Positions 2,135-27,938 of a stretch of DNA of 64,000 nt are shown piece by piece. The translations under genes and the position numbers were made by a program. The stretch comes from a virus (Duplodnaviria > Caudoviricetes), in the IMG/VR virus record IMGVR_UViG_3300046518_000260, positions 11,276-75,275 of that record; one strand, given 5' to 3'. The first letter of the stretch is position 1; each line of letters begins with the position of its first letter. Below the pieces are notes generated by a model, which was not told where the DNA came from, ran no database searches, and saw nothing but the letters and a program-made list of their open reading frames with translations.

Positions 2135-2509
2135 TTAGCGCAGATTAAAGCTATGTTTGCCGGTTTTCTGGCCTTCGATGACCTTTTCAACGTCGCTGAT
2201 AAGCTTGGAGCCTACGTCATGCGGCACTACGGCTGGCAGGTGCCCGGCCCCAAGGAATGCGGAGGCGTCCGGGATGGATTTGTTGCCATTCAGACCGCGA
2301 CGCAGCTCCTCGACCTTGTGCGCGTGTTCATCCAGCAACTTGAACCGGCAATGGTCAAAGATGGGCAGCGGCAGCGCCATCTCAGCGCCTGTATCGAACA
2401 GGATAAGCACAAAACCCTTGCGCGCCTTGGTGTCGAACTTGATCGCGTGCCCAAAGTGGTGCATTTCGGTGAAATTCGTGGGGATAACATCAATCTTGAA
2501 ATTTGACAA
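2135..2509 (-). CDS. Hypothetical protein
   Basis: Co-oriented ORF in the operon; TTG start inferred, so the start is uncertain. Confidence 0.5.
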   Translation of the reverse strand: MSNFKIDVIPTNFTEMHHFGHAIKFDTKARKGFVLILFDTGAEMALPLPIFDHCRFKLLDEHAHKVEELRRGLNGNKSIPDASAFLGAGHLPAVVPHDVGSKLISDVEKVIEGQKTGKHSFNLR

Positions 2510-2720
2510 CGCCGTAATCCCATTCGTGGTTAAGAAAGATGATGCAATCCAGCTCGTCGTCAGGAATTTCACCGTAATTTGTGATCCCTTTCTTGTGCCA
2601 GTTCCAATCGCGGCTCAGCTGCCAGCCTTTCGATATCAGAAACCGCCCGATCGGAGCCGTATCGATCGAGTTAAACCGGGCGCGCATCCCGGCCCGTTCT
2701 TCTTCAGTTGCTTGCGGCAT
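2490..2720 (-). CDS. Hypothetical protein
   Basis: 76-aa ORF with protein-like composition, tightly packed with neighbours. Confidence 0.6.
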   Translation of the reverse strand: MPQATEEERAGMRARFNSIDTAPIGRFLISKGWQLSRDWNWHKKGITNYGEIPDDELDCIIFLNHEWDYGVVKFQD

Positions 2721-2729
2721 TGACGGTCC

Positions 2730-2957
2730 TCATGTTAGCCATAGGTCACTGCAATTCACGTCGCTTGCACATCCACTGGTAAACCAGATGATCGTGCATC
2801 TCCAAACGACGGCATTGACGCTGTTATCGCTGACGACATCACCTTCGGCATTCTCGCACCAGCTTTCATCGACAGTGCCGCCATGGCCGTGTTCGTCCTC
2901 GACCCTTGTGCCTTTCGGCAATAATTCGTCATCATTTGCTTTAATTCTAGACGACAT
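2730..2957 (-). CDS. Hypothetical protein (SH3-like beta pattern)
   Basis: LLPKGTRVEDEHGHGGTV...AVVW pattern; co-oriented. Confidence 0.55.
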   Translation of the reverse strand: MSSRIKANDDELLPKGTRVEDEHGHGGTVDESWCENAEGDVVSDNSVNAVVWRCTIIWFTSGCASDVNCSDLWLT

Positions 2958-3129
2958 AGTTCACCCTTATCCAAATGACCCACACCACAACTGCGAACAG
3001 CGTGCAGAGTAGATAAAGAATTGACAGAAAATAACGATCAAACCACGTCTCGGGTTGACTGATTTCCAGCGTGGAGACCCAATAATACGGATAAATGCTG
3101 AGAATGATTGGCAGTAAAACTGACCATGA

Positions 3130-3790
3130 CATCGGGCGGGCGCTCCCGGGTTAGAGTTTATCCATTCTGACGCACCAACTCATATCGCTTTTCAGGGCTT
3201 GCGGGTCAGCGTCGCCATAATCTAGTTCCTAGAGCCGGGCTGCAAGTCCTCGTTGGTCCGCCAGCCTGCGCCAGAATGAATTCATGTTACTGTGACCCAG
3301 AGGTAGGGGGACCTTGGGAGGATAACCTCTGGGTCACAGTGTTACCAAGAGCAGGGAATGTCCTTGGCAATGGGTCCGGAGGGCGAACCCGTCAGTGAAC
3401 TCCCTCCGGTATGGTCCTAGCCGAGTTTAACGGCGTCGCTCCTACGATCACGCCCGTAAAAGATAGGAGCGTTTATGCGCAATCGGACCATAAGCAATAT
3501 TGGAAGTCCGAGCATGGAGACGACTTCACACCCGGACTTACCGATCATGACCATTGCTGGTCAGAGGATTTTCACCCTGCCGCCAGCAGCTTCGATCCTT
3601 ACAGCCGAATGGCATCCCTACCATACACAGCTGAAATTCACAGGCGCGGGTCACGCCCAAGGCAATTCTTAGATCATCGGCTGCTCGGGGCGCATCCATC
3701 CCGACTTGCGGCAGCATGACGCCTTTCAACGTCTACCAACCATGATCCAGCGGCGAAACTAGATTGACTGGACCAACCACGTTTCTGCAA
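3130..3790 (+). ncRNA. Candidate large structured non-coding RNA, family unknown
   Basis: At least ten stems, several nested, including a perfect 16-bp inverted repeat (3289-3304/3325-3340); a G-U pair favours the + strand; no convincing ORF; terminator follows at 3846-3880. Confidence 0.5.
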
Positions 3791-3845
3791 CCATAAATAA
3801 CTGTTATTTTAGCTAGGGCAATACTGAAAATGCGTTTCTGCAAAA

Positions 3846-3880
3846 GAAAAACCCCGGCACAGGAGAGCACCGGGGTTTTC
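3846..3880. terminator. Bidirectional intrinsic terminator
   Basis: AAAACCCCGG (3848-3857) / CCGGGGTTTT (3870-3879), with A and T tracts on both sides. Confidence 0.75.
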
Positions 3881-4013
3881 ATTGGGAGGATCGAAGCCGA
3901 GCAAGCGTTGTCCATCCAGAACACCCTGACCATATGCCAGCGCAGCTTCACTGACAAGTAGATAATATAACCCACAGCTACCCGATACAGGCAGCGGTTA
4001 AGCGGGTCTGGGA

Positions 4014-4304
4014 CTATTGGTCATAGGAACCTCGGCGGGCCATTATTCTACCGCCGACGCCGGAGAGCGATCCGCTGTACATGGTAAACGGACCATGGGT
4101 CATCTGTCCGTGGTAGCCGCCTGACACGATGGTCTCGCGGGAACCTGCATAGAGTTTTAGCGCCTTGTTGAACTCGCGACTGCAAATCTGCATCACCTTG
4201 CTGGTCTTCATCTGATCAACTTTAATGTCGCGTTCATACAGGACCTTCGGGGTGCCGTGGGCTGTACGACTTTCGATAAGGATGGTGAAGGGGATTTGGT
4301 TCAT
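4014..4304 (-). CDS. Hypothetical protein
   Basis: 96-aa ORF, ATGA overlap with upstream gene. Confidence 0.6.
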   Translation of the reverse strand: MNQIPFTILIESRTAHGTPKVLYERDIKVDQMKTSKVMQICSREFNKALKLYAGSRETIVSGGYHGQMTHGPFTMYSGSLSGVGGRIMARRGSYDQ

Positions 4305-4582
4305 GGACCGTGGGCCTTGGTGAGAGGTAGTATTGCGGAGTTCATTGGTCTTACCCGTACGAGCTGTTCTCCCAGGATGGGCGCTCCGTCCGCATTCGTC
4401 TCAATACCGTCGAGGCCATTACCATGGCCCGGGAACCTTGCATGTCTATAGACCGAGGTTTTGCCGGTATTGGTTAGAACGTGTACAGGGTTATGCGTTC
4501 CATGAAAAGTTAATTTGCCAGAAATCCAGTTGGCTCTTTCGGCGGATCGGGGACATCTATTCTCTATGCATCGAATTTTCAA
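4301..4582 (-). CDS. Hypothetical protein
   Basis: 93-aa ORF, coupled to the next gene. Confidence 0.55.
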   Translation of the reverse strand: MKIRCIENRCPRSAERANWISGKLTFHGTHNPVHVLTNTGKTSVYRHARFPGHGNGLDGIETNADGAPILGEQLVRVRPMNSAILPLTKAHGP

Positions 4583-4749
4583 CTATTTACGTGGCCCCTG
4601 GGACCTTCTTGCAGGCTGCTAGTTAACTGATTTTCTAAAAGCTGAGAATTACAAACGCTCGGAGACGCGACGCCGCCCGCCCTCAGAAACCCGTTTGGAG
4701 TAGATTGGATTTAACTTAAATTTTAATGATTAAAGTTTTAACGGTGCGA

Positions 4750-4813
4750 TTAACTAATTATTAAGGTTAATAAGGGGTTAACGGTGCCTGATTGTTGGTT
4801 AATGAATGGTTAA
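4750..4813. promoter_or_regulatory. Three CtrA-type boxes (TTAA-N7-TTAA)
   Basis: 4750 TTAACTAATTATTAA, 4767 TTAATAAGGGGTTAAC, 4799 TTAATGAATGGTTAA. Confidence 0.7.
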
Positions 4814-5177
4814 TAAGCGCTGGATTTAAAATGTTTAAAGAAACGTTTAAAGTTTTAAGTTGCATAACAGGCATTATGGAACCATAGCGTTTTAGTGGGC
4901 TATTAAGCCATGCCATAGAGCCGCCATACAAGGCCGTGGGCGCGTGGTTAGGGGTTAGGCTAGGGTAGTAGCTGGTAGGCACGGCATGCGCATGGGACAG
5001 GCTGCTAAGTGCCTCTGTTTACGTTATCTTTGTGCTTGGTAGGCGGGTTGTTAGAACGGCGGTAAAAGGCCCGTTGACCGAGGATCGATAGTATATATTG
5101 GGTGCGCAGGTAATTTGCCGAGAGTGAGATGCAGAAGTCAGGGTTAAATGCGTCTCCCCAAGTATACTTGCCGGGCT

Positions 5178-27201: not shown

Positions 27202-27938
27202 AGCTTTATTCTCCGGCTTGGGGCGGCGGGCATTTCGTCACCCGGCTGGAAGTTCACGAGGCACGGTTCGATATAGACGATCTTGGTCTGCTCGTTCCCA
27301 GGACCGTAGTGCTGCCGTCGCGTATAACCGGCACGCAGATGCACGCGCATCTTGCCGCCGCTGACGTGCTTCGTCGCCTTGCCGTTACGGTCATAGACTG
27401 TTGCGATCCGTATGACCGTAACGGCAGGAATAAGGGAGCGGCCCTTGCGCTCGCGCTGCTTGTTCAGGGCGTCGCAGGTAATGTGCGTCTTTTCAATGCC
27501 CTTGGTGTTCAGGAACAAAAGCGCCATGGTCGCCGCTGCTATGATCGCGTGCCCGTGCTGCATCTGCTCCGGGCCATTGCAGACCATGCCGTCCTTTTCG
27601 ATATACAGGTCGGCTTGCGGACAAGCATAGACCGTGCGGTCGGTTGGTAGGTGCAGGAATATCGCGGTGCACTTTATGCACTCGCCCTTGTCGATCATCA
27701 GGATGAACCAGCGGAACTGTTCGGTCGCCGAGAATTCCATGACCATTGGGGAATATGGCAACTTCATGATGCCTGCCTCGACCAAGGCTTGCACAGACTT
27801 GAACGCATCCTCGCGCTGGATGATCTGAACAACGTCATTCTCGACCAGATATTTCGCGGAGTTTTGGTAGAGTTCTCTCACTTCATGATTGATGCCAGCC
27901 CAAGTGATCCGGTGTTGTGCCGTGTAAACCCGATCCAT
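27198..27938 (-). CDS. Conserved phage protein of unknown function
   Basis: C-terminal HLRAGYTRRQHYGPG...KIVYIEP motif. Confidence 0.7.
   Translation of the reverse strand: MDRVYTAQHRITWAGINHEVRELYQNSAKYLVENDVVQIIQREDAFKSVQALVEAGIMKLPYSPMVMEFSATEQFRWFILMIDKGECIKCTAIFLHLPTDRTVYACPQADLYIEKDGMVCNGPEQMQHGHAIIAAATMALLFLNTKGIEKTHITCDALNKQRERKGRSLIPAVTVIRIATVYDRNGKATKHVSGGKMRVHLRAGYTRRQHYGPGNEQTKIVYIEPCLVNFQPGDEMPAAPSRRIKL

Follow-up and report, generated by a model that had tools for sequence, protein, structure and literature searches.

A strongly folded RNA of about 655 nucleotides, a candidate leader of the packaging operon, in an uncultured phage with a DnaE-type polymerase

Structured leaders that precede late operons are established in the lambdoid phages, where late control combines the PR' promoter, a leader of about 200 nt (the '6S' RNA), the tR' terminator and the Q antiterminator. 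Another RNA device of phages, put, is a small two-hairpin element. The put RNAs of HK022 are cis-acting processive antiterminators that consist of RNA only (PMC9378689), and GOLLD and ROOL are large ornate RNAs of phages and prophages (PMC5737381; bioRxiv 10.1101/2024.12.08.627333). Here we describe a gene-free interval of 750 bases in the genome of an uncultured phage that most likely encodes a strongly folded RNA of about 655 nt outside the known families. On balance we favour reading this RNA as a long cis-acting 5' leader of the packaging-initiation operon that contains terS, transcribed on the minus strand from its own promoter.

The arrangement resembles lambdoid PR'-tR' in that an untranslated, structured leader with a promoter of its own would stand directly before the operon with which packaging and morphogenesis begin, and in two sister genomes (G001 and L156) the likeness extends to a terminator-like hairpin within the leader. 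The leader in the window, by which we mean the whole 64,000-nt stretch of DNA analyzed, differs in being about three times longer and in having no internal terminator (no terminator-like site was found by a terminator scan of 3790-3133 on the minus strand); moreover, a Q-like gene is not recognised, and there is no relation in sequence or in Rfam. As with put, the nascent RNA at the front of a phage operon could, once folded, influence the polymerase with no help from a protein, which would fit a genome such as this one, in which we recognised no antiterminator; the window RNA is about 655 nt long with many helices, however, and the likeness is one of layout only, with a putative function. With GOLLD and ROOL it shares a length of more than 500 nt, dense structure and carriage by a phage, but it has no Rfam match to either and is apparently a leader and not a separate gene; they also have a core that is conserved in many genomes, whereas the body of the window RNA is present in one genome only. 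The RNA thus lies outside the Rfam families and outside both of the sister RNAs that we modelled, and it differs from other leader modules before late operons in its length (about 655 nt, with gene-free leader regions of up to about 1.3 kb in relatives) and in occupying a conserved slot with unrelated contents.

The window corresponds to positions 11276-75275 of a 75,275-bp IMG/VR virus record that is complete, with terminal repeats, and it codes for a DnaE-type polymerase, a DUF5906 primase/helicase-like protein, an SNF2 helicase and an HK97-type capsid protein. No cultured phage is near to it, the top polymerase identity being about 37%. The genes around the gap are all on the minus strand. 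Upstream are two genes at 4301-4582 and 4014-4304, for neither of which homologues were found, and the 96-aa upstream protein has none among 5.8 billion proteins. Further upstream, at 4645-5025, is a non-coding stretch whose DNA is conserved in almost every relative (G001, G002, L156, L158, L159, L161 and L164); no other intergenic DNA nearby is as well conserved, and the stretch is a candidate origin region. Downstream of the gap are two small ORFs (3132-2947 and 2957-2730), a conserved 145-aa gene (2572-2135), a conserved PD-(D/E)xK-like nuclease gene (2081-1644), terS (1585-1028, phrog_1482) and a 160-aa gene (1016-534). The first of the small ORFs, taken from the ORF list, would encode a hydrophobic protein of 61 aa and is a putative gene only, as no homologue was found; for the small proteins nearby, neither PHROG nor Pfam gave a match. 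The nuclease-like protein is also 145 aa long and is conserved, with an invariant GYPD...E.K motif; one distant homologue belongs to Pfam VRR-NUC (PF08774), and within this phage group the gene is always directly upstream of terS. After terS and the 160-aa gene comes a terminator-like hairpin on the minus strand at 428-457 (L031 11732-11703; 12 pairs, eight of them G-C), where the unit headed by the leader likely ends or has an internal stop.

An earlier note on this DNA, made from its letters alone, had proposed that positions 3130-3880 lack a convincing ORF and instead carry a large structured RNA, and much of this is borne out. The longest ORF in the span is of 102 aa, on the plus strand, and those of at least 40 aa lying wholly inside it have codon-usage scores of -0.36 to +0.03, where long genes score +0.31 ± 0.16 and shadow frames -0.15. 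None of the ORFs of at least 40 aa has a tblastn match in 13 related loci, and neither the 102-aa plus-strand ORF nor a 63-aa minus-strand ORF has a match in two large protein libraries, so that codon usage, tblastn and the protein-library searches all point to non-coding DNA. All 13 of the 13 stems that had been listed are complementary as described, including the perfect 16-bp stem 3289-3304/3325-3340. The comparison with Rfam that the note had suggested gave no family match: at gathering thresholds Rfam 15 has no matches across the whole window, and in permissive mode the interval 2900-4100 yields chance-level matches only (E at least 0.9). The families not encountered include GOLLD, ROOL, HEARO, OLE, group I and II introns, tmRNA and RNase P, and ARAGORN detects neither a tRNA nor a tmRNA. 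With this result and the shuffle comparison on the minus strand (below), a large structured non-coding RNA without an Rfam family remains the best reading.

The same note had placed this RNA on the plus strand, antisense to the packaging operon and closed by a hairpin at 3846-3880. Folding can discriminate between the strands because Watson-Crick stems are strand-neutral and G-U pairs are not. The minus strand of 3133-3790 has a minimum free energy (MFE) of -272.1 kcal/mol (221 pairs, 33 of them G-U) and is more stable by 34 kcal/mol than the plus strand, with an MFE of -238.2 kcal/mol (203 pairs, 17 G-U). Relative to 100 dinucleotide shuffles of this interval the minus strand has a z-score of -5.04, none of the shuffles being equally stable (the best reaches -254.6 kcal/mol); for the plus strand, likewise with 100 dinucleotide shuffles, z is -1.92, and the best shuffle, at -245.6 kcal/mol, beats the real sequence. 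The expectation that the fold is more stable than chance therefore holds for the minus strand and fails for the strand for which it was put forward. Separate folding runs are concordant, with z-scores of -5.8 and -7.0 on the minus strand and -2.1 on the plus strand. In segments of 200 nt the structured part spans approximately 3160-3700, with the signal mainly at about 3200-3700, and in a genome background of 88 sampled 300-nt segments on two strands (mean z about -0.9, sd about 1.7) the minus strand of 3121-3420 ranks first among the 176 strand-segments, with z of -7.1, followed by one at -5.3.

The hairpin at 3846-3880 is present, and it is the sole terminator-like site found in 2500-4500. 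Its long T-run is on the minus strand and it lies 130 nt past the stop codon of gene 4014-4304, and therefore it is better read as ending that preceding gene, upstream of the RNA, than as closing a plus-strand unit. As an intrinsic terminator of the upstream unit (3838-3880, minus strand, from the terminator scan and the inverted repeat) it consists of CCCCGG at 3875-3870 paired with CCGGGG at 3857-3852 and extended by A-U pairs, followed by TTTTTCTTTT. One related locus, L164, aligns with window positions 4046-3797 at about 62% identity, and its terminator stem is maintained through compensatory changes, with a T-run on the minus-equivalent strand only. The reading of the note, in which the RNA runs antisense to the packaging operon on the plus strand and ends at this hairpin, could draw on the Watson-Crick stems, which exist on both strands, and on a TTTT that follows the hairpin on the plus strand; we nonetheless think it very improbable, given a z-score of only -1.9, with one or more of the shuffles surpassing the real sequence in stability, the missing T-run on the plus-equivalent strand of L164, and the syntenic RNA of G001, which folds on the sense strand only (z -3.8, as against -0.5 for antisense). 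Nor does a consensus scan of 2500-4500 find a promoter-like site on the plus strand such as a cis-antisense RNA would need, and the gene-free region overlaps no confirmed gene; since no packaging gene is overlapped either, an RNA on the plus strand would have no coding sequence opposite to it. The minus strand, in the same sense as the terS operon, is indicated alike by folding energy, G-U content, the terminator T-run and the promoter-like block described next.

Just downstream of the terminator is a promoter-like block (3794-3830, minus strand), recognised through a four-way alignment and motif conservation. It comprises ATTTTC at 3831-3826, a -35 hexamer TTGCCC at 3821-3816, a conserved TAAAATAAC at 3811-3803 and a -10 hexamer TATTTA at 3799-3794, which is weak; the spacer between the -35 and -10 hexamers is 16 nt. 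The window, L164, G001 and L156 have in common the ATTTTC, a TTGC(C/A), the spacer sequence TAAAATA(A/C)C and a TA-rich hexamer after a 16-nt spacer, and the pattern TTGC-N6-TAAAATA (zero mismatches) is present once in the window and once, at the syntenic site, in each of the other three. From this conservation we infer that the block is a promoter, with transcription starting near 3787. A scan of IMG/VR with the extended promoter pattern gave 64 matches, among which G001 is the only relative. The block is flanked by two exact copies of TTGCAGAAACG on the minus strand, at 3843-3833 and 3790-3780, 53 bp apart; these are the only exact copies in the 64 kb, and they are possible regulator sites.

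The body of the predicted RNA would extend over 3133-3787 on the minus strand, about 655 nt, a delimitation drawn from the MFE, the z-scores, the Rfam result and the lack of a coding signal. Its fold is a prediction from thermodynamics and context only. Nearest the 3' end, a domain at 3160-3281 is closed by a 15-bp helix (3281-3267 with 3174-3160; probability 0.85), and the perfect 16-bp stem with its 20-nt loop (3289-3340) has a probability of 0.99. Two further hairpins follow in the 5' direction, one of 9 bp at 3437-3471 (pair probability 0.95) and one of 13 bp at 3504-3539 with three G-U pairs on the minus strand (0.99). Perfect hairpins of at least 12 bp occur in three places only in the 64 kb, and the 16-bp stem is a candidate site for a double-strand RNase of the RNase III type, or a candidate protein-binding hairpin. 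Another of the three places is 27380-27426, where a second perfect 16-bp inverted repeat with a 15-nt loop lies inside a minus-strand ORF. A short hairpin, GGCGUGACCCGCGCC, at 3643-3657 is the only element in common with the syntenic RNA of G001 and L156. In the full-length MFE structure the 5' arm of this hairpin instead enters a helix of 3659-3647 with 3148-3137, at a probability of 0.75-0.80, and that predicted helix includes a GGGAG motif at 3147-3143 that resembles a Shine-Dalgarno sequence and precedes the first ORF. The local form of the hairpin is thus an alternative fold, and two folding runs differ on this point; long-range helices such as this one are single-sequence predictions.

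Relatives of the window were collected as 13 loci through homologues of the nuclease gene in IMG/VR, JGI, ENA, NCBI and Logan. With the nuclease protein as an alignment query the same three were recovered from IMG/VR, plus one new metagenome contig, and the protein alone as a query gave no relatives in IMG/VR; no closer relative of the window occurs in the collections searched, its nuclease protein being found on one contig only. Wherever the sequence of a relative reaches far enough upstream, the operon is preceded by a gap of about 0.8-2.2 kb without genes: L162 (971-1765, about 800 nt), L161 (1225-2164, about 940 nt), L156 (2736-3718, about 980 nt), L164 (1295-2621, about 1330 nt), L159 (359-1857, about 1500 nt) and L158 (953-3198, about 2245 nt, which includes the conserved origin-like stretch and about 1300 nt beyond it). 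Most segments of these gaps are more stable than their shuffles, chiefly on the sense strand, and the RNAs of the window and its sisters are alike in position and strand.

Two groups of sister RNAs can be recognised in these gaps. In G001 and L156 an RNA of about 360 nt (L027:6540-6900 and L156:2963-3361, both plus strand) with a terminator-like hairpin at its end is 83% identical between the two genomes; of 109 predicted pairs none is broken, 17 carry changes in both partners and about 20 in one, and one hairpin stem is fully replaced while its loop, CUUACGGCUUGA, is kept. Immediately following this RNA is a block of about 220 nt (L027:6895-7115 and L156:3355-3575) that is about 95% identical in the two genomes, with flanks at 62-83%, and that has a folding z-score of -1.3; strong constraint and recent exchange are candidate reasons for its identity. 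Also inside the leader region of L156 (GCA_964499935.1), at about 3575-3675, a run of N between duplicated sequence of about 55 nt looks like a scaffolding gap or an artefact. In the second group, G002, L161 and L159 share a conserved 184-nt element (L028:11318-11135, minus; L161:1665-1850, plus; L159:1318-1500, plus) with compensatory changes in 12 of 40 pairs and the motifs GCGYCAGAAU and UAAUGRCAG; downstream of it stand a terminator and then a conserved promoter-like block. The sister RNAs match no Rfam family (the best sub-threshold match of the 184-nt element has an E of 0.04), and 12 related loci together have no Rfam matches.

The body of the window RNA itself has no homologue in any collection searched. 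A blastn search of the region against 50,697 phage records gave no matches, and blastn and nhmmer searches of the RNA against the gaps of the 13 relatives returned only the terminator and promoter block of L164 and one 16-mer of G001. A model of the 184-nt element has no match in the window with default filters and nothing above 4.2 bits (E 0.067) with filters off; a model of the G001/L156 5' domain (191 positions) does not match the window over the full domain, and aligns solely with the 15-nt hairpin at 3657-3643, at 7.6 bits. This is the GGCGUGACCCGCGCC hairpin, for which the syntenic site of G001 contains an identical stretch of 16 nt. Since a match of this length has an estimated chance of about 0.03 anywhere in G001, and far less in the syntenic kilobase, we take the shared hairpin as a presumptive remnant of a common origin. 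Other resemblances were discarded: an 11-mer, GCGTCAGAATG, shared with the 184-nt element is within chance, and a stem GUGGUUGG/GGACCAAC shared by the window and G001 was judged to be at chance level. A k-mer search over all gaps found nothing exceeding the shuffled expectation. A scan of IMG/VR for the 16-mer produced more than 100 matches, of which the three extended ones are apparently an unrelated conserved coding sequence (GVTRAW motif).

A gap whose RNA body is unique to one genome, in a group where the gaps vary freely in length and sequence, could also be a non-functional spacer, whether a decayed gene or a fast-evolving insert, in which hairpins arise by chance or serve at the DNA level in protein binding, packaging or replication; a perfect 16-bp palindrome could indeed bind a protein. 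We regard this as unlikely, because the strand-specific stability depends on G-U pairs and so points to RNA, the interval includes the top-ranked segment sampled in the genome, and the sister gaps show compensatory changes and no broken pairs. A decayed gene is further opposed by the absence of residual protein similarity, and a replication signal by the candidate origin elsewhere, at 4645-5025, which is the stretch conserved in relatives.

We read the RNA as the 5' leader of the operon because no terminator-like site intervenes before the ATG at 3132. For the same reason a stand-alone unit like GOLLD or ROOL is not sustained. Such an RNA on the minus strand, freed by processing (at the 16-bp helix, for example) and acting in trans or as an ornate particle of the GOLLD/ROOL kind, would accord with the size, the dense structure and the dedicated promoter, and relatives lend it something: the first 360 nt or so in G001 and L156 end in a strong terminator-like hairpin, where a discrete RNA may form, and in G002, L161 and L159 the conserved element is succeeded by a terminator and a new promoter. 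It is a doubtful reading for the window, where the 3' end of the RNA lacks a terminator-like site and GOLLD, ROOL and other Rfam families go unmatched, and where, unlike ornate RNAs with their conserved core, the bodies differ between sub-clades.

In the reading that we favour, that of a cis-acting leader, a promoter just downstream of the terminator of the previous gene would drive a non-coding RNA of about 655 nt from about 3787 to 3133 on the minus strand, and the transcript would run on into the ORF at 3132, the 145-aa gene, the PD-(D/E)xK-like nuclease gene, terS and the 160-aa gene. The leader would act in cis on the timing and level of packaging-operon expression, and three routes may be envisaged. 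The first is control of RNA polymerase read-through, and the second is control of the stability of the mRNA, or of its processing, at the perfect 16-bp helix. The third is translational: the conserved hairpin is predicted to pair with the ribosome-binding site of the first ORF, 500 nt farther downstream, and because the GGGAG before this ORF lies inside the long-range helix, folding could gate its translation.

Read-through control is plausible for the group since several more distant relatives have a NusG paralog within the operon, and since the operon of the window has a terminator-like site after terS and the 160-aa gene. NusG-paralog genes (PF02357) lie between the nuclease gene and terS in L162 (2202-2870), L231 (2712-3473) and the P0021 contig, and their presence within the operon hints that read-through control matters in this phage group. 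PF02357 is missing from the whole 75-kb genome of the window, in which respect it differs from leaders of the RfaH/LoaP type, and a NusG-dependent leader was rejected for this genome; an RNA-only device of the put type is conceivable here because there is no NusG paralog. Counting against the read-through model is that the leader in the window contains no terminator for an antiterminator to act on. An ops-like GGCGGTAG at 4055-4048 on the minus strand was also set aside, as the window has five copies against 1.6 expected in a genome without a NusG paralog. This sequence is the core of the enterobacterial ops element, and here it comes before the terminator, close to the 3' end of gene 4014-4304; four of the five copies are on the minus strand, and they are probably due to chance.

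To our knowledge, long leaders of 0.4-1.3 kb that keep their position but not their sequence throughout a whole uncultured clade have not been described. A bolder interpretation, to which we assign a low probability, is that this uncultured clade of phages with genomes of about 75 kb and a DnaE polymerase carries structured RNAs of 0.4-1.3 kb, in a fixed slot between the early region and the packaging operon, as a new and actively acting class. The promoter and the location would then be conserved while the RNA body is replaced, or diverges beyond recognition, between sub-clades, and the role might be that of an RNA-only read-through device far larger than put, or of an ornate particle, and not that of a passive leader. 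For annotation, the strand of the RNA is corrected, and such long gaps are probably not missed genes. If the finding is real, it would mean that the boundary between early and packaging genes is a place that phages reserve for a large regulatory RNA, with a content that changes fast, and the clade would provide a natural set of test cases for the control of packaging-gene expression by RNA.
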